Shown: positions 5,412 to 18,646, counted from the stretch's first letter. The stretch: DNA of 35,603 bases from Desulfuromonadales bacterium (GCA_014859615.1 JACUTX010000002.1:1-35603), one strand, 5' to 3'. Notes: a model not told the origin generated them from the letters alone. Program-made: numbers and translations.

Positions 5412-5505
5412 TCTTCGATTGACAGAAAGTCGTCATTTTTGCCGTGGTTGCGTCTTCTCCTGGCCGCAATGACGGCTTTTTCGTGAAATTTTTTCTGTTT
5501 TGAAC

Positions 5506-5521
5506 TGGTATGTAATTTGCT
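5506..5521 (+). promoter_or_regulatory. Sigma-54 (-24/-12) promoter
   Basis: TGGTATGTAATTTGCT matches TGGCAC-N5-TTGCW, with the invariant GG and GC separated by exactly 10 nt. It lies 85 nt upstream of ATG 5606 and directly downstream of a sigma-54 activator gene. Confidence 0.6.
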
Positions 5522-5605
5522 CTACTCTGCATACACGAGGATCTCTCTTTTATTGTCAGAGAATAACTTTGTCTGCCAAAGTATTGTCTGTTTTTCGGAA
5601 ATAAC

Positions 5606-6676
5606 ATGCATCGTCGCTTACTCACTGTTTTTTTCTCCCTGCTGCTGGTTACTGTTTTTGGTTTTGCTGTTTTTAAAGCCGAAAGCAATATACCGGTCGA
5701 TCGACTCTATGCTCTGCACCTCAGCCAGGCGCCGACCGATAGCGAATGGGCGAGAGCTCTGCCGCGGCTGATCGAGACGCGAGGAGGAAAGAAGAACGAG
5801 CGTTCACGTCTGGGTGATATCGATGCGGATACCGTTCACACCTCGACCGCTTCCTGCCATCACGGCTCTTCCCTCCCTGATCCGATCATTGTTGACATGC
5901 GGGCTTTTTATACGGATCAGGAGCTGTTTCTTCGCCTTGAGTGGCGTGATGCGACAAAAGACGATGCGATGAATCAGTGGACTTTTGACGGCACGGTCTG
6001 GTCCTCAGCTGCGTCTTTTGAGGATGGATTTGGTCTGATGTGGGACGCGCGCGGATCCTTCCCCCGTTTCAACTGTTCTTATGCTTGTCATATCAGCGAT
6101 TTCGGTGTTTCGGCCGATAACTTTCATGCCCGCAACAAGATGAAGATGGCCCGCCCTGACACGACTCTCGATCTCTGGAACTGGAAAGCGGGACGAACCG
6201 GACAGCTCGGCTTTGTTGATGATCGTCTGATTGATGAAAAGGGGATCCGCGGCGACCTTCCCGGTGAGCTGTTTCGTCCCAACTCTCTCTATTTTAACGC
6301 CGGTTCTAGTCGACAACCTTTTACACAAGGGGATGCGCCGCTCATCGACGCTGCCGGTGATTCTATTGAAGCGGTTTTTCGCATGGCCGGTTCAACCGTC
6401 CCCGGCTATCTGACCGACCGACCGGTCGGCAGCCGGGCTGATATTTCCGCTTTTTCCCGGCATGAAGAGGGGCGTTGGATCGTGGTTTTAAGCCGTAAAC
6501 TCAACACGGGCGATCCGAAAGATGTTGTTTTCCTGCCTGGAGATGAATCAGGTGTCGCATTTGGTCTGTCTCTTATGGATAATACCCTGATTGAGCATTT
6601 TGCCTCAGGGAGTGAGGAACGGCTGGTGTTGATGCCGCGTGATATTACTGTTGTACAGGGAGAAGAATATAAATGA
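5606..6676 (+). CDS. Exported EB_dh-like (ethylbenzene dehydrogenase gamma / cytochrome c-552-DMSO reductase-like) heme-binding domain protein
   Basis: N-terminal signal or anchor (MHRRLLTVFFSLLLVTVFGFAVF). Segments typical of the EB_dh/DOMON-like heme domain as I recall it: MRAFYTDQELFLRLEWRDATKDD and LDLWNWKAGRTGQLGFVDD. The functional call comes from motif recollection, not from a search. Confidence 0.65.
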   Translation: MHRRLLTVFFSLLLVTVFGFAVFKAESNIPVDRLYALHLSQAPTDSEWARALPRLIETRGGKKNERSRLGDIDADTVHTSTASCHHGSSLPDPIIVDMRAFYTDQELFLRLEWRDATKDDAMNQWTFDGTVWSSAASFEDGFGLMWDARGSFPRFNCSYACHISDFGVSADNFHARNKMKMARPDTTLDLWNWKAGRTGQLGFVDDRLIDEKGIRGDLPGELFRPNSLYFNAGSSRQPFTQGDAPLIDAAGDSIEAVFRMAGSTVPGYLTDRPVGSRADISAFSRHEEGRWIVVLSRKLNTGDPKDVVFLPGDESGVAFGLSLMDNTLIEHFASGSEERLVLMPRDITVVQGEEYK

Positions 6677-7416
6677 TACGAATGCGTCTGTTGTTGCTCT
6701 GTCTTCTGGTTTTCGGGTTATTGCCGGGGTGTACTGAACCATCGAACGATTCCGTTTCGGTGGAGCTCGGTCATATCAGCGGGACAATTCTTACCCCCCT
6801 AGAAGGGACGACCCTTAATGTTTACAAAAAAGGGATGGATCTGTATGGTCCGCCTTTCACCTCTTCCAATCTGACCGGAGAAGACGGGAGTTTCGATCTC
6901 GCATTGCCTCCGGGTGAATATATCGCCGTCGCTCGCAAACGCAAAAACGGGGAGCTCTCCGGTCCGGTTCTGGCCGGAGATAACCGGAGTGACTTCATCA
7001 CCTTGACCGTTAATGGCGATCAGCAGGGTCTGTCGATCATTGCTCCGTTCAAGGTCGGTGACAGCCGTCGCCTGACTGCGGAGGTTGCACAGACGCAGAC
7101 GGGACTTTCAGGCCTTATTCTCGATAGTGACGGTCGTCCTGTCGAAGGGGCGAGGGTTCATGTTTATGATCATGTGCAGATGTCTGAGCGGCCGAAATTT
7201 GTTTCGGAAAAGACGGCACCAAACGGAAGTTATCTGATCTATCTCCCCAAAGGGGGGACCTATTATCTTGCGGCCCGCGACAAATTTGGCGGACCGCCCA
7301 AACTCGGTGATCTTTACGGTCGTTACGATCAGGGGACGATTGAACCGTCCGCAGTGGTGATCGAGGATGGGAAAATTCTGCAAAATATCGATATCACCGT
7401 AACCAAGGTCTGGTAA
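6673..7416 (+). CDS. Lipoprotein with carboxypeptidase-regulatory-like beta-sandwich repeats
   Basis: Lipobox LLPGC. Two repeats of the CarboxypepD_reg type (ISGTILTPLEGTTLNVY and LSGLILDSDGRPVEGARVHVY). ATGA overlap with the upstream gene. Confidence 0.65.
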   Translation: MIRMRLLLLCLLVFGLLPGCTEPSNDSVSVELGHISGTILTPLEGTTLNVYKKGMDLYGPPFTSSNLTGEDGSFDLALPPGEYIAVARKRKNGELSGPVLAGDNRSDFITLTVNGDQQGLSIIAPFKVGDSRRLTAEVAQTQTGLSGLILDSDGRPVEGARVHVYDHVQMSERPKFVSEKTAPNGSYLIYLPKGGTYYLAARDKFGGPPKLGDLYGRYDQGTIEPSAVVIEDGKILQNIDITVTKVW

Positions 7417-8315
7417 TGAAGCGACTATTGACTCTTCTGCTCCTGAGTCTGTTGATCTCAGCCTGCCAGAATCAGAGAACTCTCGATCTGGATACTCTGG
7501 CCAGACAGGCCCGTGGCGGTGATGTCTCGGCAGGGCGGGAATTGGTTCGGCTTTTCGCCACGGCGACGCCCGAAGTCAATGACCGGCTTTATCGGATTGT
7601 TATTGAATCGGGGGATGCTGTTATCGAACCTCTGCTCGAAAATATCAAATCCCGACATCCTGAGCAGATGGAGAGGGTGATCGCTGCCCTCGGTACACTT
7701 AAGGTCGTTCGGGCTGTTCCGACGATTGCAGAGGTGTTGGCTGATACAGCTTACAAGCGCCGTTATGTTGCTGCCTGGGCGCTTGGTGAAATAGGGGCCC
7801 CGGATGGAATACCGGCGCTGATCAGGGCGCTGGATGACGATGTTATGCAGGTCAGACGTTATGCCACACGTTCCCTTGTCAAATTTAATCAGGGAGCAGT
7901 CGATCCGCTGATTGCAGCACTCGATACTTCGTCCGAACGCTCTACTGCCGCGATCATTCGCGCTCTTGGTGATATCGGCGATAAACGTTCACTCGATCCG
8001 TTGCTCAGGCACGTCTCTGGCCCGGTTCGCAATGAGGCGTTTCTGGCCCTTGGCAAGCTGCGTGATTCGCGTGCCGAGCAGGCGCTGATTCAAGGGTTGT
8101 CCGATACAGAGTGGCAGGTTCGCATGAACGCGGCGATGGCCCTCGGGTCGCTCGGCACCTCCCTGTCGGCAGCGCCTTTACGGCTCAGTCTTGAGGACGA
8201 GGTGATGGTTGTCCGTGAATGGTCAGCCCGTTCGTTGTCGACGATTACCGGTCATGCCGTCAATTACAGAGATGCGTCCGGCGAGATGGTCGCTCCTTAT
8301 ACGGTCTATCATTAA
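7416..8315 (+). CDS. HEAT-repeat (PBS lyase-like) lipoprotein
   Basis: Lipobox LLISAC. Repeated units of the form VRxxAAxALGxIGxxxAIPALIxALxD (for example VAAWALGEIGAPDGIPALIRALDDDVMQVRRYATRSL). TAATG overlap with the upstream gene. Confidence 0.8.
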   Translation: MKRLLTLLLLSLLISACQNQRTLDLDTLARQARGGDVSAGRELVRLFATATPEVNDRLYRIVIESGDAVIEPLLENIKSRHPEQMERVIAALGTLKVVRAVPTIAEVLADTAYKRRYVAAWALGEIGAPDGIPALIRALDDDVMQVRRYATRSLVKFNQGAVDPLIAALDTSSERSTAAIIRALGDIGDKRSLDPLLRHVSGPVRNEAFLALGKLRDSRAEQALIQGLSDTEWQVRMNAAMALGSLGTSLSAAPLRLSLEDEVMVVREWSARSLSTITGHAVNYRDASGEMVAPYTVYH

Positions 8316-8326
8316 GGCTGGAAACT

Positions 8327-9814
8327 ATGCGCGATAATATTTTTAACATCCCCGTTTTCGGTGCTTTACTCCGTTCCGTCTGGTTCTGGAGAATCGCCCG
8401 TCTGACGACTCTGGCTCTGACGGTGGCGATGATCGCCTGGGGCTGGCATCAGCATGCTGTTCCGGGTCTTTCGCTCCCTGATCCGTTGATGTATACAAAC
8501 CTGACCAATCATCTCTTCTGGGTCTGGTGGCTGATGGGGATCGTCTTTATCGCTCTGCTGTTCGGTCGGCTCTGGTGTTCGGTCTGCCCGCTCGGCTGGC
8601 TGAACGGTATCGTCTCCCGCTTCGGTTTGCGCCGTGAGATGCCGGTCTGGTTGCGTAATTTTATATCGGTGACGCTGGTTCTGGTCATTTTACAACTGGC
8701 GATTTATTTTTTTAAACTCCATCGATTTCCGGACTATACGGCGATTCTGCTGACCTTTTGTCTGCTGTTGACGATCGGCGCCGGTCTGTTGTATCGGCAG
8801 CGGGCCTTTTGTCTTCTGTTCTGCCCGGCCGGTGCGGTGTTTGGACTTTATGCCCGGGTGGCACCGTTTCAGCTTCGTGTCAAGCAGCCGTCGGTCTGTG
8901 CCGGTTGTGATAGCCAGCGCTGTGTCTCGGAGCCGCAGGAGTGGCAAAAACATCAACTTGGCGGCTCTGTTCTTTATCGGCATCGGCGTCTCGATGGTTG
9001 CCCGGTCGATCTTGTTCCGGCTGCGCTCGCCGATAGTGCCGATTGCACCTTTTGTCTCAACTGCTTCCATAATTGCGATAAAGAGAATATAAAAGTCGGC
9101 TTTCGCCCCTGGCTGGCAGATATCGAGACCGGCCTGCGCAGGAGTGAAACGCTTTTTTTTCTGGTTCTGTTCGGTATGTTGACCGCCAATTTCAGCAAGG
9201 TTTATGTTGAGCTGCGTCAGCTGCTCTTCTGGCTGCCGCAGGAGGTGGCCGTGCTCCTCGGCTGGCAGGAGTCGGGATACTATGTTCTGGCGGCGATCTG
9301 GGTCGCTCTGCTCTTGCCGTCCCTTTTGATGCTGCCGGGTTATCTGATTTTACGTGCTGCCGCGATCAGAACGACCTCGATAACTGACCCCGATGCCGGG
9401 CCCGGCCTTTTTGTTCATGATGAACGGTCCGGTTTCTGGAGTTCCGTCGGCCAGTTGGCTCTGCCGATGATTCCGGCACTCCTCACCGCTCATGCTGTTT
9501 TGGCGATCGTCAAGATTAACGCCAAGGCCGCTTATCTGCCGTTTGCTCTTGTCGACCCTTCCGGCGTTAAGAGCTTTCTGGCGATGAATGTCATGCAGAC
9601 GGTCGCAACTCCGGGCGCTGTGATCTCCCTCGATATTCTTAAATGGGTTGTTCTTCTTCTGTTGATCGTCGGTCTGTTCCTCTCCTTTCTGGTTGCCAAA
9701 AAGGTTGCTGTCCGACAAGGTCGCCCCGGCTTTTTACCAGCAGCGATTGTTTCGGTTCTGATTCCGACCGTCTGCTATTTTTCAACGGTGATTGAATGGC
9801 TATTCGTCCGCTGA
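8327..9814 (+). CDS. Integral membrane polyferredoxin (NapH/MauN-like 4Fe-4S binding protein)
   Basis: Many hydrophobic segments. NapH-type membrane-proximal Cys motifs (CSVCPLGWLNG and LLFCPAGAVFG) plus ferredoxin-like clusters (CAGCDSQRC and CTFCLNCFHNC). The track ORF starts at 8219 inside the HEAT gene. ATG 8327 (MRDNIF...) is the first start after the upstream stop. Confidence 0.75.
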   Translation: MRDNIFNIPVFGALLRSVWFWRIARLTTLALTVAMIAWGWHQHAVPGLSLPDPLMYTNLTNHLFWVWWLMGIVFIALLFGRLWCSVCPLGWLNGIVSRFGLRREMPVWLRNFISVTLVLVILQLAIYFFKLHRFPDYTAILLTFCLLLTIGAGLLYRQRAFCLLFCPAGAVFGLYARVAPFQLRVKQPSVCAGCDSQRCVSEPQEWQKHQLGGSVLYRHRRLDGCPVDLVPAALADSADCTFCLNCFHNCDKENIKVGFRPWLADIETGLRRSETLFFLVLFGMLTANFSKVYVELRQLLFWLPQEVAVLLGWQESGYYVLAAIWVALLLPSLLMLPGYLILRAAAIRTTSITDPDAGPGLFVHDERSGFWSSVGQLALPMIPALLTAHAVLAIVKINAKAAYLPFALVDPSGVKSFLAMNVMQTVATPGAVISLDILKWVVLLLLIVGLFLSFLVAKKVAVRQGRPGFLPAAIVSVLIPTVCYFSTVIEWLFVR

Positions 9815-10278
9815 TTCTAATGTTGAGCTTTTTGCTCCTGATGCTTTTGACCGTACCGGTTTTCGCCTGTTTTGGGCCGAAGCTCTATCTCGGTATCGGG
9901 GAGAGCCCGACGGATCAGGTTTTGACCTCGTTTGTCGCCATCTTCATCAAGGAGACGACCGGAATCGATGTGGAGCGAACCCCTTTAGCCGGGCGCGATC
10001 CGCAAGCTGAGATTGCTGCTGAAAAAATCGATTTTTCCTTTATACCAAAGCATAGAGACGGTTCTGTGGTCCTGATGGAAATTACCGGTTTTTCACCCTT
10101 GATTACCGGCCCGCGAATCGATAACGACCTGCAGTTTACTACGGTGCGAACAACTCTGGCCCGTCTTGAGAAGAAGCTGACCGCCGGTCATGTGCAAGCA
10201 TTAGTGGCAGAAGTTGACACCGGGGCGTTGGCAATGGATGTCGTGCGGCATTTCCTGATTGTGCAGAGATGGATCTGA
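9796..10278 (+). CDS. Small lipoprotein, function unknown
   Basis: 160-aa ORF with a signal peptide and lipobox (LLTVPVFAC). It overlaps the upstream gene by 19 nt. I recognise no family. Confidence 0.55.
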   Translation: MAIRPLILMLSFLLLMLLTVPVFACFGPKLYLGIGESPTDQVLTSFVAIFIKETTGIDVERTPLAGRDPQAEIAAEKIDFSFIPKHRDGSVVLMEITGFSPLITGPRIDNDLQFTTVRTTLARLEKKLTAGHVQALVAEVDTGALAMDVVRHFLIVQRWI

Positions 10279-11087
10279 TGCGTCATTTTTTAATATTAAT
10301 TCTTCTCACTCTCACGGCCTGTTCGCCAGCCGCATTTGTGGCAGAGCCTTATCTGTCACCACCGCCGGCACCGGTTTTGTTGGCACCGATCAGCGGTGTG
10401 TTGACCGGTGAAACAGTTCTTCAGGGTGAATATCTTCTGGTGGGCGACCTGCTGATTCCGAAAGGGAGTCGTCTCATCATCAAATCTGGCAGCAGCATAT
10501 ATGTGCGCCGGGCAGAGACGACCAAGATCGATCCGGAGTTTCTCTCTTCAATGACCGAGCTGCTGATTCGCGGCTCAATTCAGATCGAGGGGACGCCTGC
10601 GGAGCCGGTACGGTTTGTTCCCGAACAGAAGACGACGCTCGCTGATCCGGCCTGGGCGGGGATTATCCTTGATACCGCAGAGGCTTCTTCGATTCGATAC
10701 GCTCAAATAAGTGGCGCCGAGACCGGTCTGTTGATGATTGATGCCGAGGTCGTTCTGAGCGACAGTCGACTTGAAATGAATCGTTACGGCGTGGTGATTC
10801 AGTCTGGATCTCCTCTGCTGGAACGTAATCTGATCAGCAATGGCGAGGGGGGCCTGTTTGTCTGGCAGGGTGCAGCGCCGAAACTGGTTGATAATATTAT
10901 CCGCCAGAATGAAGAAGAGGGGATCACGATCGATCGGTCGAGTCGTCCCGTTTTAAGTCGTAATCGCTCGCAGCAGAATGCGATCGGGCTGGTCTCTGTG
11001 ACTCTCTTTACGTCCGATGCTCTGCAGCTCTCTGAAAATACGACCGCGTGGCGTCAGCTGCTTTCCCGGCAGGAGTTGAAAAAATGA
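10269..11087 (+). CDS. Lipoprotein with right-handed parallel beta-helix repeats (NosD-like)
   Basis: Lipobox LTLTAC. Periodic repeats of about 22 residues of the PbH1 type (SRLEMNRYGVVIQSGSPLLERNLISNGEGGLFVWQGAAPKLVDNIIRQNEEEGITI). The N-terminal region parallels the next gene. Start could be ATG 10269 or 10278. Confidence 0.7.
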   Translation: MDLMRHFLILILLTLTACSPAAFVAEPYLSPPPAPVLLAPISGVLTGETVLQGEYLLVGDLLIPKGSRLIIKSGSSIYVRRAETTKIDPEFLSSMTELLIRGSIQIEGTPAEPVRFVPEQKTTLADPAWAGIILDTAEASSIRYAQISGAETGLLMIDAEVVLSDSRLEMNRYGVVIQSGSPLLERNLISNGEGGLFVWQGAAPKLVDNIIRQNEEEGITIDRSSRPVLSRNRSQQNAIGLVSVTLFTSDALQLSENTTAWRQLLSRQELKK

Positions 11088-12163: not shown

Positions 12164-12185
12164 CTGATATTAAAGGACAGTGTGT

Positions 12186-13109
12186 ATGAGTTTAGGTATT
12201 AAATTTATTTTGAAATCAGTGGCGGGTCTCGTCTTGCTGCTGCTGACAGGATCTCTGTTGGCCGGTTGCGATGCGGTCAAGGAGCGACCAAAAATGCGGA
12301 TCGGGTACATGAACTGCAACAGTGAAGCGGAGACCAGGGCGCGATTCGGTCCGCTAAATGAGTATCTCTCACAAAAGCTTGGTATCGATTTTGAACTGGT
12401 CTCCGTCGATACCCAGGAGTTTGCCGAGCGTTTTCATAAAGGCGAGTTCGATTTTACCCATACCAATTCACTGCTCTATATTATTTTGCGGGAACAGAAG
12501 AATCTGCGTCTTCTGGCGACGGAAAAACGGGGTCAATACGGCCCCAGAACAGCCGGAACCCTGATTTCGCGAAAAGATAGCGGGATAAAGACCCTCGCCG
12601 ACCTGAAGGGGAAGTATCTGTTGTTCGGACCGCAGCTCGCTCCGTCGGGATTTCTGGCCCAGTATGATCTGATGCTGCAAGCCGGAATCAATCCGGAGCA
12701 GGATCTCGCCTATTACGGAATTCCGCGCGGTTCCTTCAAGCACGAGAAAGTTGTTTACGGGGTCTATTTCGGTAAATATGATGTCGCCGCCGCACCGGCT
12801 CTCGATCTGGAGTTGATGATCCGGGACGGCAAAATCACGGCGGATGATTTCAATATTATCGCTCAGAGTGAAATCTTCCCTTACTGCACCTTTGGCGCTG
12901 CCCGTCAGATTCCGGATGAGCTGGCTGAAAAGTTCAGGATGTTACTTCTCGATCTGACCCCTGAATCGACGGTTACTTACCAGAGTGAAACGGTCAAGGT
13001 TCTCGATTCAGCCTGGATTGACGGCTTTGCTCAACTGGAGGATGCCGATTACGATCCGATCCGGCGAATGGCCAAAAATGCTAACATGCCCCCTTATCAG
13101 GAGTTTTAA
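12186..13109 (+). CDS. PhnD-like (phosphate/phosphonate ABC-type) periplasmic substrate-binding lipoprotein
   Basis: Lipobox LLAGC. The N-terminal core RIGYMNCNSEAETRARFGPLNEYLSQKLGIDFELVSVDTQEFAERFHKGEFDFTHTN resembles the PhnD/Phosphonate-bd family. ATG 12186 follows AAGGA at suitable spacing, whereas the track uses GTG 12180. Confidence 0.75.
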   Translation: MSLGIKFILKSVAGLVLLLLTGSLLAGCDAVKERPKMRIGYMNCNSEAETRARFGPLNEYLSQKLGIDFELVSVDTQEFAERFHKGEFDFTHTNSLLYIILREQKNLRLLATEKRGQYGPRTAGTLISRKDSGIKTLADLKGKYLLFGPQLAPSGFLAQYDLMLQAGINPEQDLAYYGIPRGSFKHEKVVYGVYFGKYDVAAAPALDLELMIRDGKITADDFNIIAQSEIFPYCTFGAARQIPDELAEKFRMLLLDLTPESTVTYQSETVKVLDSAWIDGFAQLEDADYDPIRRMAKNANMPPYQEF

Positions 13110-13111
13110 TC

Positions 13112-13648
13112 TTGTTTCGTGATTTTTTCGATAGAGCGCACTGGTTTGCTTTAGGCGGATTAGTCATTGCTCTTTTTTACCTGCTCTTCTTCTCTCCGGT
13201 TGACGGGTCGACAGTCAGAAAACAGGATAAACGCCTCGAACTGGTTCTGCAGGAGAAGGCCAGAATCGCCTTTCTGCTCGAAACCTATGCTCCGGTCGAA
13301 GAACTTGCCGCTGCCGGGAATCGGGCGGCGGCTTTGTTGAAACTCGAAGAACTCGAACGGGATTTTCCCGGAGAAGCTCATGCTTCTATTCTGCGTGGTT
13401 CTCTGTTGCTGGAGCAGGGGGCGATCGCCGAGGGGATTGCAGCTTATGTGCTCGGTGTACGGCAGAATGGTGATTATATCGATGCGCGCAGTCTGCTCGG
13501 TCGGCATCGGGAGATAACGGCTCTGGTTGAAGCAGAGCTCCCTCTTATCAAGGTCAGGGTCGAAAAATCCCCAAACAGCCGGACGTGGAACGAAGCGTTG
13601 AACAACATCTATTATCTGCAGAGTCGTCTGGCCGGAGGGTGCGAATGA
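13112..13648 (+). CDS. Membrane-anchored TPR-like protein, function unknown
   Basis: TTG start 8 nt after GGAG. One N-terminal hydrophobic helix (WFALGGLVIALFYLLFF), then helical-repeat sequence (GEAHASILRGSLLLEQGAIAEGIAAYVLGVRQNGDY). The family assignment is weak. Confidence 0.5.
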   Translation: MFRDFFDRAHWFALGGLVIALFYLLFFSPVDGSTVRKQDKRLELVLQEKARIAFLLETYAPVEELAAAGNRAAALLKLEELERDFPGEAHASILRGSLLLEQGAIAEGIAAYVLGVRQNGDYIDARSLLGRHREITALVEAELPLIKVRVEKSPNSRTWNEALNNIYYLQSRLAGGCE

Positions 13649-14718
13649 GACGATTCCTGACCGACCGTCACATCTGGCTGGTTATTGTTTCGGGGGGAAT
13701 TCTCGGAACATTCGGGGTGTTGCTCGCATTTTGGGGGAACCCTGAACACTCCGGCATCTGCATCTCCTGCTTTCTGGAAAATACCGCCGGAGCTCTCGGT
13801 CTGCACCCCGATACCCGGATGCAGTATCTGCGGCCGGAACTCCCCGGTTTTATCCTCGGCGCCATGGCGAGCGCTCTGGTTGGCAAAGAGTTTAAAACCC
13901 GCGGCGGCAAGGCGCCGATTTTTCGCTTTATGTCCGGTTTTTTTCTGCTTGTCGGCTGTACGGTTTTTATCGGTTGTCCGATTAAACTTTTTTTGCGACT
14001 GACCGCCGGAGATATGACTGTCTGGTCCGGCCTGCTCGGCCTTTTGGTCGGGATCGGTATCGCTACTCGCGGCTTGACCTCCGGCGTTTATATCGATCGG
14101 GGTGAGACGCAGCGCGGTGGCGGGGGGGTGCTGGTTCCGCTGCTGTTTCTCTTTTTTTTGCTGCTGCTGTTTGTCCGGCCGGCGTTTATCCTCTTTTCAG
14201 AACGGGGGAGTGCGGCTCAGCATGCTCCGGTACTGATCTCCCTGCTGGTCGCTCTGCTGATCGGTGTTTTGGCGCAAAGAAGCCGATTCTGCATCACCGG
14301 TGCGCTGCGAGATCTGTTCCTGATCGGTTTTCGGGCACCGCTCTTCTGGGGGCTTGTCGCCATGGTTCTGGCTGCGGTTGTTACCAGTCTCTTGACCGGG
14401 TCGTTTCGACTCGGTCTGTATGGCCAGCCCGGTGCACATTTTGACATGTTCTGGAGTTTTGCCGGGATGCTTCTGGTCGGCTGGATGTCGGTACTGATTG
14501 GCGGCTGCCCGTTTCGACAGCTGGTGAAGGCTGGTGAAGGGGATACCGACGCCGGAATGGTGGTCCTCGGGATGTTGACCGGCGCCGGAATTGTTCAATC
14601 GTGGAATATTTCAGCGACAGCGGCGGGGGTCTCTTTTTATGGACAGGTGGCTGTCCTGGTCGGATTGATCTTTGTCCTGACCACATCACTACTGTTTCGC
14701 GAGCGGGCGACCGCATGA
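13645..14718 (+). CDS. YedE/YeeE-family membrane protein (sulfur/selenium compound transport)
   Basis: Polytopic membrane protein with the family's conserved Cys-containing loops (GNPEHSGICISCFLENTAG and RSRFCITGALRD). ATG 13645 forms an ATGA overlap with the upstream stop. The track start at 13585 lies inside the upstream gene. Confidence 0.85.
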   Translation: MRRFLTDRHIWLVIVSGGILGTFGVLLAFWGNPEHSGICISCFLENTAGALGLHPDTRMQYLRPELPGFILGAMASALVGKEFKTRGGKAPIFRFMSGFFLLVGCTVFIGCPIKLFLRLTAGDMTVWSGLLGLLVGIGIATRGLTSGVYIDRGETQRGGGGVLVPLLFLFFLLLLFVRPAFILFSERGSAAQHAPVLISLLVALLIGVLAQRSRFCITGALRDLFLIGFRAPLFWGLVAMVLAAVVTSLLTGSFRLGLYGQPGAHFDMFWSFAGMLLVGWMSVLIGGCPFRQLVKAGEGDTDAGMVVLGMLTGAGIVQSWNISATAAGVSFYGQVAVLVGLIFVLTTSLLFRERATA

Positions 14719-14739
14719 TCGTTAAGGAATGAGGTTAAT

Positions 14740-15054
14740 GTGCAACGACTGAAGCGAAATCCCGATATTGTCTGGCGGGTTGAAAAACAGCGGGAAGCCT
14801 CGGTTCTCAAGGCTCTTGAAGCGGGATCCGATCCGGGTGAGCAGGGGACGGTTCTGCTGATTGTCAGCGGAACCATGCATCAGCTGAATATGATTGGCGG
14901 CACTATCTGGCAATCTGTCGATGGGAGTCGATCGCAAAAGCAGCTGGTCGATCTGCTGGCCGCTGAGTATGATGTGGACCGTGCAGAACTTGAAACTGAT
15001 GTCTGTCTCTTCATTGAAGATCTGATACAGAGAGGGTGGTTGATTTATGACTGA
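14740..15054 (+). CDS. PqqD-family peptide chaperone (RiPP recognition element protein)
   Basis: 104 aa with a GTG start 5 nt after GAGG. Typical PqqD pattern: NPDIVWRVE ... LLIVSGTMHQLNMIGGTIWQSVDGSRSQKQLVDLLAAEYDVDRAELETDVCLFIEDLIQRGWL. Confidence 0.85.
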   Translation: MQRLKRNPDIVWRVEKQREASVLKALEAGSDPGEQGTVLLIVSGTMHQLNMIGGTIWQSVDGSRSQKQLVDLLAAEYDVDRAELETDVCLFIEDLIQRGWLIYD

Positions 15055-16051
15055 GCCGTTTATCGAGCTGTTCTCTGCTCCTTTGACTTTCAACTGGACA
15101 CTCTCTTTCCGCTGTAATTTCAGTTGTCAGCACTGTTACAGCCGCGAAGAGATGAGCGACGAGTTGTCGACAGAGGAGAACTTTCGGGTGATCGATGTTC
15201 TGGCTGAGCAGCAGGTTCCGTTTATTAATTTCGGCGGTGGTGAGCCTCTGTTATCTGCTGATCTCTATAAAATTGCAGCTTATGCAGTCAGTAAAGGGCT
15301 GAATCCGTCGATGAACTCAAACGGCTGGTTGCTCGATGAATCGGCGGCCGTCCGTTTGAAAGAGGTTGGCTTCAGAAGTGTCGGCATCAGTCTGGACAGC
15401 GCCAAAGCGGATCTGCACGATGATTTTCGTTGTATGCCCGGAGCGTATGATCGTGCTGTCAACGCGCTGCAGGCGTTGCAGAAAGTCGGTCTGCGCAGTA
15501 CGCTAAGTGCCGTCATCTCCCGGATTAATTATAAAAATTTTCGTGATATTCTCGATCTGGCCCGTGAGAACGGCGTTGCGCAAGTCTATCTGCATAATTT
15601 CAAATGCAGCGGGCGCGGGTTCAAAAATCGCGAAGAACTCGATCTGACTCCGCAAGAGTGGAAAGCTTTTTATATTGAGGCGCTGGCGGTCAAAAATGAG
15701 ACTACCGATATCGATATCTCGTTCGATGATCCGGTGATCGCCTCTCTCCCCGGCTATGCTGAAAACTCGTTGGTCAAGGGGAGCAGTTGTGGTAAACTTT
15801 CTCTGCATTTGCGCCCGGATGGTCACATCACCCCGTGTGGATTCATCCCGCTGGTGGTCGGTCATATTCTCAGGGATGATTTTCAGACACTCTGGCAGAA
15901 ATCACCGATTCTGGTCAAAATGCGCAACAAGGAAGCCAAGGGGAAATGTGGTGATTGCGGATCGTTTGAATCGTGTCTGGGCGGTTGTACAGCGCGTGCA
16001 TTTGCCACGACCGGTGATTTCAGCGAGCCCGACCCGCACTGCTGGGTTTAA
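15047..16051 (+). CDS. Radical SAM/SPASM domain peptide-modifying enzyme
   Basis: CxxxCxxC SAM-cluster motif (CNFSCQHCY) and the GGGEPLL SAM-binding motif. Complete 7-Cys SPASM signature (CGKLSLHLRPDGHITPC ... CGDCGSFESCLGGC ... HCW). Overlaps the PqqD gene by 8 nt. Confidence 0.92.
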   Translation: MTEPFIELFSAPLTFNWTLSFRCNFSCQHCYSREEMSDELSTEENFRVIDVLAEQQVPFINFGGGEPLLSADLYKIAAYAVSKGLNPSMNSNGWLLDESAAVRLKEVGFRSVGISLDSAKADLHDDFRCMPGAYDRAVNALQALQKVGLRSTLSAVISRINYKNFRDILDLARENGVAQVYLHNFKCSGRGFKNREELDLTPQEWKAFYIEALAVKNETTDIDISFDDPVIASLPGYAENSLVKGSSCGKLSLHLRPDGHITPCGFIPLVVGHILRDDFQTLWQKSPILVKMRNKEAKGKCGDCGSFESCLGGCTARAFATTGDFSEPDPHCWV

Positions 16052-16101
16052 CCTGCACAAAGAGAGAAGAGTTCTCTTCTAAGCAAAAAGGAGGTGTACC
16101 G

Positions 16102-16158
16102 ATGAAAAAGTATCAAAAGCCGATGGTTGTCGGATCTGCAAACGTTCATCCTTGCTAA
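16102..16158 (+). CDS. Candidate 18-aa precursor peptide MKKYQKPMVVGSANVHPC (below the 60-aa floor of the supplied ORF track)
   Basis: ATG 16102 to TAA 16156-16158. It is preceded by AAAAAGGAGGTG (GGAGG at 16090-16094, 7-nt spacing), the best anti-SD complement I noticed in the window. It lies between the radical SAM/SPASM gene and its SPASM paralog and is followed by a GC hairpin. There is no homology evidence, so this is a call from genomic context. Confidence 0.5.
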   Translation: MKKYQKPMVVGSANVHPC

Positions 16159-16166
16159 ACATCATC

Positions 16167-16194
16167 GGGCAGCTTTACGCTGCCCTTTGCATTT
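16167..16194 (+). terminator. Hairpin and T-rich tail after the small ORF (possible partial terminator or attenuator)
   Basis: GGGCAGC (16167-16173), TTTAC loop, GCTGCCC (16179-16185): a perfect 7-bp GC-rich stem. It is followed by TTTGCATTT, an interrupted U-tract, which suggests leaky rather than full termination. Confidence 0.4.
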
Positions 16195-16212
16195 AATGGA
16201 CAAAACCTTTAT

Positions 16213-17163
16213 ATGGCAATCGATCTGCTCGATACCCCGCTACGCGTGACCTGGGACCTCTGTTCCCCCGTGCAGCCTGTTTCTGCCGCCGATACGCTCG
16301 AGATTGCAGCGCGTCTGGTTGAAGCACAGCTGTTCTATGTCACCCTGGAGAGGACCCCGCTGCTCCATCCTCTCTTCCGGGATGTGGCGACAACACTTGC
16401 CGCTGCCGGTTGTCAGCTCCTTGTGACCTGCTGCGGCTCTGTTGCCGAATTAAGTGAGCTCAAAGAGCTGCCGGATCATTCCCAGCTCCTGCTCGATGTC
16501 GGCGGCTTTGTGACGACTGATGGGGTTGACTTCACAGCGCTGGAACAGACCTGCTCTACGCTATGCAAGCGGGGGGTAAACTACGGACTGACCCTCACTC
16601 CGACCCCGGAAAGACTCGGTATGATCGGGGCTCTCCTCCGGTTTTGTCTCCATCGTCAGATTCCGCGTTTTAAGTTGCCGAATATGCGTATTAATGATAA
16701 TTTTTCGCCAACGTTGCGCAGCGACCTGCTGCACGCCGGGGATATTGAACGTTTTCGTCAACTTGCGGTCGATTTTCCTGATTTTAGTGGCGAGCTTCAG
16801 CTCGATGTGCACGATCTTTTTCTCTGGGAGATCCTGTTCCCAAACGGAGGCGCTCCCCGGAGTGAATACGGTGGATGTCAGGCGGCAAACAGTCTGGCGC
16901 ATATTGACTGCACAGGAATCGTTCACCCCTGTCTCTCATGGCCGCAACCGCTCGGCTCACTTTTGAGAGATTCTTTTTATGCAATCTGGCAGGATGTGCC
17001 CAGGCAGAAGATCCGGGATTCTATTGCTGTAACTCCGGACGGATGTCAAAGATGTCGCGATTATAGTCTCTGTTTTGGCGGCTGTCGCGGTCTCTCCCGT
17101 CTCGAAGAGTTGTGGCAGGGGCGTGATCTGATGTGTGCAGGGGAGTGCAAACTGTCTGACTGA
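16213..17163 (+). CDS. SPASM-domain protein, a radical SAM paralog lacking the SAM-binding cluster
   Basis: The N-terminus aligns with the upstream enzyme (PLRVTWDLCSPVQPVS versus PLTFNWTLSFRCNFSCQHCY), but CxxxCxxC is gone and GGGEPLL has become TLERTPLL. The C-terminal SPASM cysteines are intact (GGCQAANSLAHIDCTGIVHPC ... CQRCRDYSLCFGGC ... CAGEC). Confidence 0.8.
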   Translation: MAIDLLDTPLRVTWDLCSPVQPVSAADTLEIAARLVEAQLFYVTLERTPLLHPLFRDVATTLAAAGCQLLVTCCGSVAELSELKELPDHSQLLLDVGGFVTTDGVDFTALEQTCSTLCKRGVNYGLTLTPTPERLGMIGALLRFCLHRQIPRFKLPNMRINDNFSPTLRSDLLHAGDIERFRQLAVDFPDFSGELQLDVHDLFLWEILFPNGGAPRSEYGGCQAANSLAHIDCTGIVHPCLSWPQPLGSLLRDSFYAIWQDVPRQKIRDSIAVTPDGCQRCRDYSLCFGGCRGLSRLEELWQGRDLMCAGECKLSD

Positions 17164-17199
17164 AATCTTTTAATGTTAATTTAAATGGAAATCCATTTT

Positions 17200-18354
17200 A
17201 TGCTGATTTATCTCGACAATTCAGCCACCTCCTTTCCAAAGCCGGAAGCGGTTTACAGGGCTGTCGATAGCGCTTTTCGTGACTGTGGCGCCAATCCGGG
17301 CCGCGGCGGTCATCGCATGTCTCTGGATGCCTCCCGTCTGGTCTTTTCTGCCCGCGAGACCATCGCCGATTTTTTTTCGATTGCTGATGCTTCACGATTG
17401 ATCTTTACCTCGGGAGCGACCGAGGCGATCAATACGGCGCTGTTCGGTCTTCTGAATCCCGGTGATCATGTGGTCACCACGGCTATGGAGCACAACTCTG
17501 TCCTCAGGCCGCTTCGCGTTCTGGAAAAATCCGGCGTTTCGCTCTCAATCGTTGATGCTGACGCATCCGGCTCTGTTTCTGCTTCGTCGATAGCAGCCGC
17601 CTGCACCGACGCCACCCGGATGGTTGTGATGACTCACTGTTCCAATGTCACCGGGACTTTGATGCCGATTGAGACGGTGGGCGAATTTTGCCGGGGGAAA
17701 AATCTGCTTTTTTTGGTTGATGCCGCCCAGACGGCGGGGCATATTCCGATTGATGTCGATGCCTTGGGGGTCGATCTTTTGGCTCTTCCAGGACACAAGG
17801 GTCTGTTTGCACCACCCGGTATCGGTTGTCTCTACGTACGGGAAGGGGTGCCGCTGCGTCCGCTGATACATGGCGGGACCGGGGGACAGTCGGAACAGGA
17901 CGAGATGCCCCTGCAGATGCCGGAACGCTTTGAAAGCGGAACCCTCAATACCCCCGGGATTGCCGGACTTAAAGCTGGTATCGAATTTATTACCGAAGTC
18001 GGTCTCAATGCGATTATGGCTCATGAACAGCAGCTGGTCGACCTGCTGGTGCGTGGTTTAAACTCTATTGATGGCGTGACGGTCTATGGCAAAGCCGGCA
18101 GCGGTCACCACGGGGGGGCCGTCTCATTTACCTGCCAAAACAGGGATCCATCCGAGATCGGCTTTATTCTCGATCAGGACTATGACATCATGGTCAGGGT
18201 CGGTCTGCATTGTGCCCCTGGTGCCCACCGGATGATCGGGACTTTTCCGGCCGGGACGGTTCGGGTCAGTCCCGGTTACTTTACGACAATTGATCAGATC
18301 GAACTGTTGATTCAGGCAGTTCATAAGATTTCTCTCGGCCAGAATCGATTTTGA
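17200..18354 (+). CDS. Class V aminotransferase-fold cysteine desulfurase family protein
   Basis: N-terminus IYLDNSATSFPKP. PLP-lysine context LPGHKGLFAPPG. Catalytic Cys loop VRVGLHCAPGAH. Start is ATG 17200 (MLIYLDN) or 17185, and neither has a clear SD. Confidence 0.88.
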   Translation: MLIYLDNSATSFPKPEAVYRAVDSAFRDCGANPGRGGHRMSLDASRLVFSARETIADFFSIADASRLIFTSGATEAINTALFGLLNPGDHVVTTAMEHNSVLRPLRVLEKSGVSLSIVDADASGSVSASSIAAACTDATRMVVMTHCSNVTGTLMPIETVGEFCRGKNLLFLVDAAQTAGHIPIDVDALGVDLLALPGHKGLFAPPGIGCLYVREGVPLRPLIHGGTGGQSEQDEMPLQMPERFESGTLNTPGIAGLKAGIEFITEVGLNAIMAHEQQLVDLLVRGLNSIDGVTVYGKAGSGHHGGAVSFTCQNRDPSEIGFILDQDYDIMVRVGLHCAPGAHRMIGTFPAGTVRVSPGYFTTIDQIELLIQAVHKISLGQNRF

Positions 18355-18367
18355 TAAGGAGGATTAG

Positions 18368-18646
18368 ATGATTCGTTTCATTTTGACTCTGATTGTTGCA
18401 GCCGTTCTGCTGACTGCGTGTGCGTTGCCACCAGAACGGCCGGTGACGCGTGAAGAGCTGATGCAGACCCGTATTTACCAAACCTTTGTCATCGTCGAAT
18501 CACCCGAGCAGATACTGGCTCTTTTGAACAGCTATGGAGAGGCGGTTCTTCTGGCGAAACGGAACATCCCCGGCAAGGATTACCCGGTGCATGTCAAATT
18601 GTTAGCAACCTCAGAAGGGATTGAAATTTCTGATTATGATCGCTAG
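18368..18646 (+). CDS. Small lipoprotein, function unknown
   Basis: 92 aa with lipobox LLTAC, preceded by AAGGAGG. No family recognised. Confidence 0.55.
   Translation: MIRFILTLIVAAVLLTACALPPERPVTREELMQTRIYQTFVIVESPEQILALLNSYGEAVLLAKRNIPGKDYPVHVKLLATSEGIEISDYDR

Follow-up and report, generated by a model that had tools for sequence, protein, structure and literature searches.

The PQQ (PqqA/PqqD/PqqE) and mycofactocin (MftA/MftB/MftC) systems combine a short, conserved precursor peptide with a PqqD-type chaperone and a radical SAM/SPASM enzyme, and so does a run of genes in the 35,603-nt stretch of Desulfuromonadales DNA analysed here (the window; its genes are lettered in Table 1). In mycofactocin the key precursor residue is at the C-terminus; here Cys takes the place of Tyr at that end, a transporter-like module is coupled to the cassette, and equivalents of PqqB/C/F or MftD/E/F are lacking. 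Enzyme L falls short of the cutoffs for MftC (184 bits against 265) and PqqE (114 against 381). What had been noted as a ‘RiPP cassette’ is the GeoRSP system (NCBIfam TIGR04302-04304), catalogued but unstudied. The three-gene cassette and its order are identical, public annotations of close homologues carry the GeoRSP name, L is above its curated cutoff (430.7 bits against 400), and K and M, though below theirs (81 against 100 and 93 against 300, respectively), have GeoRSP models as their best matches. The family has been defined bioinformatically only, and the precursor in this run matches none of the NCBIfam models searched. To our knowledge the family definition does not include the SBP-TPR-YedE-beta-helix partners considered below, and a literature search found no paper naming GeoRSP or its TIGRFAM accessions, nor any on this system. 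The thio(seleno)oxazole maturase SbtM and the bufferin enzymes also act on a Cys (or Sec) of a short peptide. SbtM is from the same bacterial order, but L scores 80 bits on its model (cutoff 350); bufferins are copper-binding (PMC11626156), but their enzymes are MNIOs whereas L is a radical SAM protein, and their precursors have signal peptides, which the run's peptide does not.

The envelope partners also have described relatives. Those of J are the putative selenium-uptake pairs YedE/YedF and FdhT/FdhU, and the thiosulfate-uptake system TsuA(YeeE)/TsuB; J has conserved pore Cys residues as described for YedE, and it is weakly similar to the solved structure of TsuA (6LEO, E 6.5e-4). Members of the YedE family are found together with SelD and next to genes of the Sec-lyase family (PMC5322559), and J too has a neighbour of the latter kind; in place of a YedF/TusA-like partner, however, the run encodes a periplasmic binding protein, a Cys-ending peptide and a TPR protein whose last residue but one is Cys. 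The AF2 model of H (pLDDT 91.3) superposes best on ArrX (TM 0.88), then on PtxB, HtxB and AioX. In AioX a Cys of the pocket binds arsenite (PMC5908839); H likewise has Cys predicted to be near its ligand cleft, but two invariant ones instead of one. As in the AioXSR circuit there is a sigma-54 activator, but no adjacent histidine kinase or ABC transporter, and H, which misses the PhnD and phosphonate-family cutoffs despite 182.6 bits in Pfam, is encoded inside the regulated operon beside YedE. Nos accessory proteins, of which NosD is a beta-helix and NosH/NosR are NapH-like, and the CcoG cupric reductase share with the run periplasmic NosD-Pfam beta-helices and a Fer4_5 polyferredoxin with CxxCP motifs, but the run lacks NosZ, NosF, NosY and NosL, its beta-helices reach 18.6 bits on the NosD model (cutoff 300) and D scores about 20 bits on NapH models (cutoffs 213-234).

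Extent, control and modular conservation of the run

The 13-kb run is a real, widely conserved bacterial system, so far uncharacterised. Between 5606 and 18646 there are 16 plus-strand ORFs (15 proteins and the 18-codon peptide ORF at 16102-16158), with starts matching those of a separate gene call made on a contig of 96% identity. The tight junctions described in the initial annotation held up, ranging from -19 nt to +54 nt with the widest gap between the peptide ORF and the SPASM gene. Its domain assignments were recovered by Pfam/NCBIfam searches (EB_dh, CarboxypepD_reg, HEAT, Fer4_5/NapH-like, two beta-helix/NosD-like, Phosphonate-bd, TPR, YedE, PqqD, rSAM/SPASM, SPASM-only and class-V aminotransferase), and a hydropathy scan agrees with its count of one signal peptide, two anchors and two polytopic proteins. 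Where seven lipoboxes had been claimed there are six (LPGC in B, ISAC in C, VFAC in E, LTAC in F, LAGC in H and LTAC in O), the 18368 ORF apparently having been counted twice. Motif and domain scans of the run's ORFs agree that CxxCH motifs, a molybdoenzyme, NosZ and an ABC transporter are absent; the absence of a cytochrome c is less certain, because A has invariant C84-H85-H86 and C157xxxC161-H162 (M179 and H331 are invariant too).

Table 1. Features of the run and its control region
Feature	Coordinates	Strand	Basis or remark
Sigma-54 activator	4050..5411	+	Pfam: receiver + AAA+ sigma-54 interaction + Fis-type HTH; gene call on 96%-identical contig
Palindrome TGACAGAAAGTCGTCA (TGAC-N8-GTCA)	5420..5435	.	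putative site for the activator; promoter lies 86 nt downstream
Sigma-54 -24/-12 promoter TGGTATGTAATTTGCT	5506..5521	+	strict motif match
A: N-terminally anchored EB_dh-fold protein	5606..6676	+	Pfam EB_dh 97.8 bits; AF2; optional module
B: lipoprotein (LPGC), CarboxypepD_reg-like domain	6673..7416	+	domain scan; C-terminal half highly conserved
C: HEAT-repeat lipoprotein (ISAC)	7416..8315	+	domain scan
D: polytopic NapH/CcoG-type polyferredoxin	8327..9814	+	Pfam Fer4_5; conservation
E: 160-aa lipoprotein (VFAC)	9796..10278	+	family searches: none match
F: beta-helix / NosD-like lipoprotein (LTAC)	10278..11087	+	domain match
G: secreted beta-helix / NosD-like protein	11084..12163	+	domain match; conservation
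H: lipoprotein (LAGC), oxyanion-binder fold (PhnD/ArrX/PtxB class)	12186..13109	+	Pfam 182.6 bits; AF2
I: single-pass TPR protein	13112..13648	+	domain match; conservation
J: YedE-family polytopic protein, putative selenium transporter family	13645..14718	+	TIGR04112
K: PqqD-family peptide chaperone, GeoRSP type	14740..15054	+	Pfam PqqD; TIGR04302
L: radical SAM/SPASM enzyme (GeoRSP)	15047..16051	+	TIGR04303
Precursor peptide MKKYQKPMVVGSANVHPC	16102..16158	+	18 codons; Shine-Dalgarno AAGGAGG 7 nt upstream
GC-rich hairpin GGGCAGC-TTTAC-GCTGCCC + T-rich tract	16167..16185	+	terminator or attenuator after peptide gene
M: SPASM-only paralogue	16213..17163	+	Pfam SPASM; TIGR04304
N: class-V PLP cysteine desulfurase / selenocysteine-lyase-like enzyme (EF2568 family)	17185..18354	+	TIGR01977
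O: 92-aa lipoprotein (LTAC)	18368..18646	+	family searches: none match

Sigma-54 control is borne out by phylogenetic conservation. The promoter is the sole strict -24/-12 match on both strands of the 35.6-kb window, 30 of 35 related loci carry NGGTAY-N5-TTGCT in the interval separating the activator gene from the first gene of the operon, and the element precedes both long and short forms of the operon. The palindrome, which would serve as the activator site, recurs in 18 of the 35 intergenic regions, mostly 66-102 nt upstream of the -24/-12 element. The response-regulator-type activator gene immediately upstream also stands before the operon in related loci; here it shares 11 nt with the preceding GAF-GGDEF gene (2993-4060). 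At the other end PhoH2 starts 14 nt after 18646 with no terminator between, and this, together with the hairpin after the peptide gene, marks 18646 as the end of a functional unit rather than a demonstrated transcript end. Of 58 relatives, 32 have a perfect-stem hairpin after the stop codon of the peptide, and in 23 of the 32 it is extended by a T-rich tail.

Gene order is conserved in relatives, but comparison of 160 related loci reveals modules rather than one indivisible 13-kb unit. The minimal unit of PqqD, radical SAM enzyme and peptide stands alone in some genomes, beside housekeeping genes; its near-constant partners are an ArrX/PtxB-like binder with Cys, a TPR protein, a YedE-family channel and a NosD-like beta-helix protein. 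The EB_dh/CPD-reg/HEAT/NapH-like block (A-D) is present in 22 of 45 assessable loci and absent from 23, while the SPASM-only gene and the desulfurase are both found in 49 of 64 loci and both missing from 13, with the SPASM gene alone in two. Where genome loci have enough flank, K-L is preceded by H and J in 59 of 62. This linkage is seen in Desulfuromonadales and also in MAGs that are labelled Nitrospirae, Rokubacteria, Deferrisomatales and others, and is kept in a rearranged order, G-K-L-M-H-I-J; at L120, L132, L133/L134 and L155 the peptide gene adjoins H or G, apart from the radical SAM gene. From the earlier interpretation, then, sigma-54 control, gene order, the peptide idea and the lack of a characterised pathway survive (no protein reaches the curated thresholds for NosD, NapH, PhnD or the DMSO-reductase gamma subunit, and the literature search was empty). 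The single unit does not, given the modularity and the hairpin, nor does the absence of a recognisable anchor: the GeoRSP cassette, YedE (above the TIGR04112 cutoff) and a desulfurase of the selenium-linked EF2568 family are all recognised.

The peptide cassette and the cysteine-lined envelope set

The 18-residue precursor ends in His-Pro-Cys (...VHPC-COOH). Searched for in 81 sources, the window and 80 related loci, its gene gives a single match in 58, always 3′ of L, and is under clear protein-level selection: among 56 distinct DNA sequences Y4, P7, H16, P17 and C18 are invariant though their codons vary synonymously, and the genes of relatives end in all three stop codons between them. It was not found near the cassette in six Desulfuromonadales-type loci, Geothermobacter ones included. 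L has 735 homologues at E<=1e-30; M keeps the seven-Cys auxiliary-cluster motif but not the CX3CX2C radical-SAM motif.

Cys residues recur through the envelope set. In H, Cys44 and Cys234 (numbered from the 12186 start) are invariant across phyla and, by alignment to PtxB/ArrX, would be located in the binding cleft. In I only G175 and C177, the last residue but one (tail ..AGGCE), are invariant across phyla, and the stop of I overlaps the start of J (ATGA). J, at 393 bits against a TIGR04112 cutoff of 200, has five conserved Cys: Cys39/42 (CxxC), 111, 216 and 288. G, a cross-phylum core member whose gene in distant loci is flanked by those of YedE and PqqD or precedes that of the binder, has invariant H135 and H137, with C125, M114 and H260 at least 90% conserved.

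Candidate cargo and competing readings

What might such a system handle? Judged from sequence comparison it is probably selenium, sulfur or a soft metal. The reading we prefer, at a rough probability of 0.38, is that a relay of Cys residues takes a thiophilic species through the membrane and that the matured peptide is its carrier or ligand; selenium or sulfur would be likeliest, a soft metal or metalloid the main rival. The run would be a sigma-54-activated composite operon whose conserved heart is two coupled modules, the GeoRSP cassette (chaperone K, enzyme L and precursor, here with M) and the cysteine-lined set of H (a small-oxyanion binder), membrane-anchored I, the channel J, and G. The species, most likely selenium with sulfane sulfur a close alternative, would be handed from Cys to Cys over the inner membrane via H, J and I; we infer both the element and the direction of transport. 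The His-Pro-Cys peptide, after a putative radical SAM modification by L, would be a dedicated small carrier or ligand that may contact H, G or I, with N mobilising sulfur or selenium and M supplying auxiliary Fe-S clusters.

The relay is supported by the GeoRSP identity of L, with K and M best matching GeoRSP models, by the Cys of H, I, J and the peptide terminus, by the I/J overlap and by the nearness of the H model to ArrX/AioX. Selenium is favoured by the TIGR04112 score of J, by the SelD and Sec-lyase links of its family and by induction of yedE on selenium starvation of M. maripaludis (PMC11097638), and selenium or sulfur by N, which scores 470 bits on TIGR01977 (cutoff 377) with SclA (Sec lyase) next best at 342, below its cutoff of 525. 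For coupling of the modules there are the 59/62 linkage, the rearranged order, the peptide gene beside H or G, and L133, where peptide and H adjoin a BcrAD_BadFG activase and HGD-D dehydratase-like pair, gene types listed as YedE/YedF neighbours (PMC5322559). Against the preferred reading, selenocysteine/Cys pairs are absent from every cluster protein across 80 loci, and selD, selA/B and yedF were not found in the window. The M. maripaludis yedE knockout has no clear phenotype (PMC11097638), and H, G and the peptide occur elsewhere among metal(loid) genes, which a metal or metalloid would fit at least equally. Coupling has against it K-L-peptide without H/J nearby in a few genomes, H without I/J in 10 of 42 metagenome loci, and the six loci without a peptide gene; contact of the peptide with periplasmic H or G has against it that no signal sequence was found in the precursor and no obvious exporter is encoded in the operon. 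The proposal of a periplasmic assembly or redox system built around a modified peptide keeps its peptide; assembly or redox is one option, and the gene neighbourhoods of relatives are at least as strong an argument for trafficking of selenium/sulfur or a soft metal/metalloid.

Handling of a soft metal or metalloid is possible, though less likely than not; in other lineages thiol-redox and metal(loid)-transport genes adjoin those of the binder and the helix protein, and even that of the peptide. The peptide would be a metallophore-like ligand, L either turning its C-terminal Cys into a metal-binding group (such as the thiooxazole made by SbtM or bufferin enzymes) or leaving a His/Cys chelating tail; H and the beta-helix proteins would bind the metal(loid) or metal-peptide complex, and YedE and the NapH/CcoG-like protein would move or reduce it. 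The H subfamily and F/G adjoin a P1B ATPase with a CPCALVISTP motif (Zn/Cd/Pb type) together with DsbA-like, DsbD_TM and LspA genes; OEP, CusB/HlyD efflux, ResB and CcsA genes are next to peptide and H; an ArsP_1 permease stands between YedE and PqqD in L156; and NicO-like, MFS and CbiM genes are found as neighbours. The fold of H is nearest arsenic-oxyanion binders that are partners of sigma-54 regulators (ArrX, AioX), G has conserved His, Cys and Met, and Cys-derived thiooxazole RiPP metallophores are known (bufferins, PMC11626156; the name of the SbtM model). However, profile searches of the window's operon found no metal transporter, metallochaperone or efflux pump, the score of L on the SbtM model is low, the peptide lacks an exporter or signal peptide, and the YedE selenium-family match and the desulfurase are left unexplained. 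No single metal emerges, since the neighbouring genes vary in specificity (Zn/Cd/Pb, Ni/Co, As). In L145 and L155 the slot of ArsP_1 is taken by an ORF of ~630-645 aa.

That the peptide yields a PQQ/mycofactocin-like redox cofactor for A-D, or for an enzyme encoded elsewhere, is improbable. The best characterised relatives of L are AhbD/NirJ (208 and 192 bits) and MftC (184 bits), PqqE is its nearest solved structure, a dedicated PqqD chaperone is encoded, the precursor is single-copy, extremely conserved and leaderless-sized, and K-L-peptide can stand alone beside housekeeping genes. Yet A-D are so often missing, there is no Mft/Pqq-type peptidase, flavoenzyme or glycosyltransferase and no cofactor-dependent dehydrogenase, and the near-constant SBP-TPR-YedE partnership and Cys pattern would go unaccounted for. 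Mere adjacency, through vertical descent in Desulfuromonadales, of unrelated envelope redox, uptake, RiPP and desulfurase units is more doubtful still: housekeeping PhoH2 and TsaD are equally syntenic downstream there, a terminator-like hairpin follows the peptide gene and every module occurs somewhere without the others, but the H/J-K/L linkage persists across several phyla and gene orders, the peptide gene has moved beside H or G, stop/start overlaps run throughout the operon and a single conserved sigma-54 promoter precedes both forms. A secreted antimicrobial or signalling RiPP with accessory envelope genes would match the typical radical-SAM/SPASM, PqqD and short-peptide architecture but is highly improbable for a single-copy gene whose core is near-invariant across phyla, in an operon without leader protease, ABC or MFS exporter or immunity gene.

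Optional and peripheral products

Under the preferred Cys-relay reading, A-D (haem EB_dh protein, two lipoproteins and polyferredoxin) would be an optional electron input for periplasmic reduction. The AF2 model of A (pLDDT 85.6) has NxrC and EbdC as best folds, and its orthologues are mostly lipoproteins. D, which by the hydropathy scan has ~10 hydrophobic segments, combines a conserved C-terminal membrane domain with two CxxCP/CxxxCP motifs and a further eight invariant Cys. B-like genes turn up again beside long beta-helix genes in other lineages, where the positional equivalents of E give weak OpuAC (half-binding-protein) matches; F is a distant paralogue of G. The membership of O is uncertain, as only Desulfuromonadales-type loci have it. 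N conserves H204 (GHK motif) and C343, and its true start may be at 17200.

The GeoRSP cassette and its precursor peptide

The cassette made up of K (PqqD), L (radical SAM/SPASM) and M (SPASM-only) belongs by its sequence to the catalogued GeoRSP family, an assignment resting on L, which passes TIGR04303 ('GeoRSP system radical SAM/SPASM protein') at 430.7 bits (cutoff 400). The other two members, K and M, are divergent. K is in the right position and has TIGR04302 as its best model (81.1 bits, cutoff 100); M, whose best model is TIGR04304 (93.3 bits, cutoff 300), carries the seven-Cys SPASM motif without the CX3CX2C radical-SAM motif. Close homologues are also named GeoRSP in public annotation, and L has 735 homologues at E ≤ 1e-30. 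Searches of the full-text literature for GeoRSP by name or TIGRFAM accession, for YedE with radical SAM, and for SPASM with PqqD and Geobacter, gave no paper on the system. As to a leader protease or exporter, there is no peptidase, ABC or MFS gene in 5606-18646.

Between L and M lies a short ORF, ATG-AAA-...-TGC-TAA, which encodes MKKYQKPMVVGSANVHPC and has a Shine-Dalgarno sequence, AAGGAGG, 7 nt upstream. Its relatives were sought in a genome set of at least 80 species-representative loci obtained from an alignment of the radical-SAM protein, to which all window proteins were mapped by tblastn (E ≤ 1e-4). When the window and 80 of these loci (81 sources) were read in six frames for [VI]HPC-stop after 14 residues, exactly one match per source was found in 58 of the 81, each just 3' of the radical-SAM gene. 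These copies comprise 56 distinct DNA sequences and only 32 distinct peptides, with Y4, P7, H16, P17 and C18 invariant and two to four synonymous codons used for each. All three stop codons, TAA, TAG and TGA, are found after the Cys among the 58 copies, and it is therefore the true C-terminus of the peptide; for the same reason TGA at that position is ruled out as a Sec codon. In distant lineages the pattern is Y-x-x-P-x-[VI]-x-G-[ST]-[SA]-x-[VI]-H-P-C, e.g. KYVAPKVFGSAAVHPC. No NCBIfam model matches the peptide even at E ≤ 10, and the precursor is undescribed in NCBIfam or the searchable literature.

Six Desulfuromonadales-type genome loci (L013, L025, L027, L030, L038 and L049, among them two Geothermobacter MAGs and cultured G. 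hydrogeniphilus) have no ...HPC ORF in the fetched flanks, and in them M abuts L directly. Relaxed regular expressions gave nothing credible as an alternative peptide in loci without the ORF, and these six may have lost the precursor or may encode it outside the fetched flanks. In several metagenome loci from a later sampling with H (L120, L132, L133/L134 and L155) the peptide gene adjoins H or G, apart from the radical-SAM gene, which for L132 and L133/L134 is not present in the flanks at hand. The precursor there is a variant (e.g. MKKSKYVAPKVFGSAAVHPC), located directly beside H or the beta-helix gene, as at L133 7717-7824 and L134 1918-2025. Such relocation argues for a joint function of the peptide and the envelope proteins.

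Envelope partners and their conservation across phyla

The partner proteins of the cassette are rich in conserved Cys residues. J passes TIGR04112 (YedE putative selenium transporter) at 393.3 bits against a cutoff of 200 and has conserved Cys at 39/42 (CxxC), 111, 216 and 288. I, the stop codon of which overlaps the J start, is a single-pass TPR protein in which G175 and the penultimate C177 are the sole invariant residues among 16 sequences from all lineages (tail ...AGGC[EDHQ]); no description of such a penultimate-Cys TPR protein was found in NCBIfam or the searchable literature. The AlphaFold model of the lipoprotein H (pLDDT 91.3) has ArrX as its best fold match (TM 0.88), then PtxB, HtxB and AioX, all of them binders of small inorganic oxyanions. 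Two Cys of H, in GYM-x-C-NS and P-Y-C, are invariant across phyla and, by sequence alignment, would flank the conserved binding-cleft motifs of PtxB/ArrX. AioX is a precedent, in that a pocket Cys binds arsenite and the protein signals to a sigma-54 activator (PMC5908839). H is below the PhnD cutoffs (TIGR03431, 96 against 261 bits; TIGR01098, 89 against 112 bits), and no ABC genes accompany it. In G, which has no PDB match by sequence, H135 and H137 are invariant and C125, M114 and H260 at least 90% conserved.

Two forms of the gene order are found in Desulfuromonadales-type loci, a long one, activator-A-B-C-D-E-F-G-H-I-J-K-L-(pep)-M-N-O-PhoH2-TsaD, and a short one without A-D. Since PhoH2 and TsaD are as syntenic there as O, synteny within that order proves little, and it is the pattern across phyla that ties H, I, J and G to K-L. 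H-(I)-J-G-K-L-(pep) is kept in MAGs labelled, as deposited, Nitrospirae, Rokubacteria, Deferrisomatales and unclassified 'Deltaproteobacteria', four of these loci also carrying activator-A-B-C-D. (The small, divergent E, I and O are under-detected in distant loci, where I was found only through ORF inspection.) The initial annotation envisaged one 13-kb unit with conserved order. The order is borne out, H and J being upstream of K-L in 59 of the 62 loci with enough flank, across phyla; the single unit is so only in part, with A-D present in 22 and absent from 23 loci with enough flank, M and N after K-L in 49 of 64 (M alone in two, neither in 13), and K-L(-peptide) alone amid unrelated genes in five genome loci, MAGs labelled Desantisbacteria and Portnoybacteria among them. 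Three of these stand-alone loci (L053, L054 and L072) were found to carry the peptide ORF.

Metagenomes contain 286 confirmed stretches encoding the binder H. A second, independent sample of at least 80 further loci came from scanning metagenomes with aligned sequences of the Cys-bearing H subfamily. I/J come next after H in 32 of the 42 with sequence downstream of H, and among the 20 with long flanks H-J and K-L occur together in 12, H-I-J only in one and H without I/J in seven. There is a rearranged order, G-K-L-M-H-I-J, and also a larger form with, in this order, genes for cytochrome b561, multihaem cytochrome c, a long beta-helix protein, a B-like protein, an OpuAC-like half-binder equivalent to E, ResB-like and DsbD_2 proteins, H, I, J, ArsP_1 permease and cupin, followed by K, L and M. 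At the level of gene content and order, these data establish a near-obligate partnership between the peptide cassette and a module of SBP, TPR, YedE and beta-helix proteins in which invariant cysteines abound, often at a terminus. The coupling of a GeoRSP cassette to YedE, a Cys-bearing binder and a beta-helix protein is undescribed in NCBIfam or the searchable literature.

What the module may carry

What would such a partnership accomplish? YedE-family proteins are leading candidates for dedicated selenium transport, and to our knowledge have no established substrate or partner. We envisage a Cys-to-Cys relay that would carry a thiophilic species across the inner membrane, the matured HPC-terminated peptide being the putative carrier or ligand of that species. 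The first choice for it is selenium (or sulfane sulfur), on account of the co-occurrence of J's family with SelD and its Sec-lyase-family neighbours (PMC5322559), the response of yedE to selenium starvation in M. maripaludis (PMC11097638), the membership of N in a selenium-linked desulfurase family, and the activase/dehydratase-like pair, a BcrAD_BadFG activase and its HGD-D partner, near the peptide gene and H in a metagenome locus, L133, such gene types being given as YedE/YedF neighbours (PMC5322559). In that locus the peptide gene is directly upstream of H, and ResB, CcsA, LspA, a methyltransferase and OEP/CusB-type efflux genes are also present. There is roughly one chance in five that the ...VHPC peptide, once matured by the radical-SAM enzyme, serves as a dedicated small carrier or cofactor for selenium (or sulfane sulfur), acting with the YedE channel, the Cys-pocket binder and the penultimate-Cys TPR arm. 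If true, no earlier peptide-based 'chalcogen shuttle' would be known, transport by the YedE family would acquire a defined biochemical partner, and the peptide would constitute a new class of RiPP-derived trafficking cofactor over several phyla.

Nearly as likely is that the species is a soft metal or metalloid with the peptide, by analogy to SbtM and bufferins, a His/Cys or thiooxazole-type ligand, since the proteins show no Sec/Cys pairs, no selD or yedF is present in the window (the Sec-lyase-family gene N is in the operon), and the alternative gene contexts are dominated by metal(loid) transporters. The survey for Sec recoding covered all cluster proteins in 80 loci and found no in-frame TGA aligned to Cys, the sole in-frame stops being in one frameshift-ridden long-read contig. 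L080, a long-read MAG contig of the genome set, has many in-frame stops and frameshifts in all cluster genes, which looks like assembly error rather than pseudogenisation. Among the alternative contexts, five metagenome loci (L102, L103, L104, L107 and L109) have a paralogous F-G-H set, its H 65-67% identical to that of the window, with none of I, J, K and L detected downstream. Pfam places after the L104 set genes for DsbA-like and TPR proteins, a P1B ATPase of the Zn/Cd/Pb type (CPCALVISTP), LspA, DUF1573 and DsbD_TM, an arrangement with no I, J, K or L within 8 kb; ORF sizes in L102 and L109 match. A copper-specific reading, from the NosD-like and CcoG-like parts and the neighbouring P-type ATPase, was rejected on that ATPase motif, which is of the Zn/Cd/Pb type. 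Some H-I-J loci have PALP and class-III aminotransferase genes, and ArsP_1, NicO-like or MFS neighbours. Judged by its neighbours, the module is placed in a general setting of envelope thiol-redox and metal(loid) transport.

PALP-family PLP enzymes adjoin the cassette or H-I-J in a genome locus (L054, 1680-3690, with a PP-loop ATPase) and in two metagenome loci (L141, 10719-13335, and L150, 7384-10352, each with a class-III aminotransferase), and in those lineages they may belong to the pathway as well.

Repeatedly, radical-SAM/SPASM systems whose short precursor is invariant have proved to make cofactors (PQQ, mycofactocin) or metallophore-type ligands. A PQQ- or mycofactocin-like cofactor is less likely here. 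L reaches 184 bits on the MftC model (cutoff 265) and 114 bits on PqqE (cutoff 381), and no Mft or Pqq tailoring genes are present in the operon. Simple juxtaposition of genes, compatible with synteny in one order, is also less likely, given the association across phyla. The system falls within the radical-SAM/SPASM peptide systems, with a realistic chance of a new trafficking mechanism. The analysis supplies a testable precursor sequence for a long-catalogued, unstudied cassette, evidence that in many anaerobes this cassette is linked to a Cys-lined SBP-TPR-YedE-beta-helix module, and a small set of cultured carriers suited to genetics, such as Geopsychrobacter electrodiphilus, Desulfuromonas versatilis, D. 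carbonis, Geoalkalibacter halelectricus and Geothermobacter hydrogeniphilus. If the peptide proves to carry selenium, sulfur or a metal(loid), trace-element trafficking would gain a new branch; if it does not, the system still offers a well-defined target for novel radical-SAM chemistry at a C-terminal Cys.

Transcriptional control, remaining proteins and surroundings

Control by sigma-54, as proposed from the initial inspection, is well supported by phylogenetic footprinting, in which promoter and palindrome are conserved across related loci, and by the adjacent activator gene. The promoter is the sole strict -24/-12 match in the window, both strands having been searched. NGGTAY-N5-TTGCT occurs in the intergenic region ahead of the first operon gene in 30 of 35 related loci with an activator gene, and is kept both where A comes first and where E does. 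Of the 35, 18 have a TGAC-N8-GTC palindrome, in most of the 18 some 66-102 nt upstream of the promoter. There is no histidine kinase nearby for the activator's receiver domain. The activator gene overlaps the GAF-GGDEF diguanylate cyclase gene by 11 nt, and in ten related loci whose upstream flank is long enough the cyclase gene likewise comes ahead of the activator. Two features qualify the idea of a single transcript ending at O. The peptide gene is followed by the GC-rich hairpin with T-run, and a perfect-stem hairpin is found at that position in 32 of 58 relatives. At the other end, no terminator separates O from PhoH2, and as PhoH2 and TsaD keep their downstream position in most related Desulfuromonadales-type loci, they may be co-transcribed with the operon through read-through.

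When the ORFs were listed and translated, 15 encoded proteins and one was the 18-codon ORF; the start codons chosen are those also used in a separate gene call on a metagenome contig of 96% identity. With those starts the tight packing initially described holds, the junctions ranging from an overlap of 19 nt to a gap of 54 nt. Pfam and NCBIfam recovered all the domains that had been named, and together with the translations agree that the operon is without a CxxCH motif, molybdoenzyme, NosZ or ABC transporter. The predicted topology is consistent with a hydropathy scan; the seven lipoboxes became six on recount.

Features of the window (assignments of A-O from Pfam/NCBIfam)
Feature	Position	Description
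GAF-GGDEF gene	2993-4060	diguanylate cyclase
Activator gene	4050-5411	sigma-54 activator with receiver domain; ends 95 nt upstream of promoter
Palindrome	5420-5435	TGACAGAAAGTCGTCA; just past activator stop, 86 nt upstream of sigma-54 promoter
Promoter	5506-5521	TGGTATGTAATTTGCT; -24/-12
Operon	5606-18646	plus strand
A	5606-6676	EB_dh
B		lipoprotein, CarboxypepD_reg-like
C		lipoprotein, HEAT
D		polytopic, Fer4_5/NapH-like
E		lipoprotein, no family
F, G		beta-helix/NosD-like
H		Phosphonate-bd
I		TPR
J		YedE
K		PqqD
L		radical SAM/SPASM
Peptide ORF	16102-16158	18 codons, between L and M
Hairpin	16167-16185	GC-rich, with T-run; 3' of peptide gene
M		SPASM-only
N		class-V aminotransferase
O		small lipoprotein
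PhoH2 (PIN + PhoH), TsaD	18661-21029	downstream of operon after 14 nt and 44 nt
Glutamate dehydrogenase	23358-28130	NAD-specific, large bacterial type, 1590 aa
tmRNA gene	34810-35166	Rfam RF00023, 214.5 bits

The view that this combination matches no characterised pathway has stood, curated tests having failed for NosD, NapH, PhnD, DMSO-reductase gamma, SclA, MftC, PqqE and SbtM. F scores 18.6 bits on the NosD model TIGR04247 (cutoff 300), G has no match to it, and nosZFYL genes are absent. D has a NapH/CcoG-type Cys pattern plus an extra conserved membrane domain, no PDB relative by sequence, and scores below the NapH/MauN cutoffs (TIGR02163, 17.6 against 213 bits; NF007013, 20.1 against 234 bits). 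N passes TIGR01977 (EF2568 family) at 470 bits against a cutoff of 377, and fails its next-best model, the Sec lyase SclA (NF040779; 342 bits, cutoff 525). That E is a paralogous fragment of H was rejected, BLASTP being not significant, yet positional equivalents of E give weak OpuAC matches.

The model of A (pLDDT 85.6) is a haem-binding beta-sandwich of the NxrC/EbdC type, a fold normally described as a binder of haem b. A scores 42.8 bits on TIGR03477, the type II DMSO-reductase haem-b gamma subunit (cutoff 169.85), no molybdoenzyme is present, and going by the model it shares only the fold with that subunit. It has an invariant CSYACH (CX3CH; residues 157-162) and, in a low-confidence loop, an invariant SCHH (residues 84-86), which possibly bind a metal, or haem covalently in a non-canonical way. 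The family is small, with 244 homologues at E ≤ 1e-5, and all named members among the matches listed are called hypothetical.

An Rfam scan of the operon gave no known RNA element. The remainder of the window is housekeeping, with ribonucleotide reductase, KsgA, a SurA-like protein and PanBC, and includes the glutamate dehydrogenase and tmRNA genes of the table.
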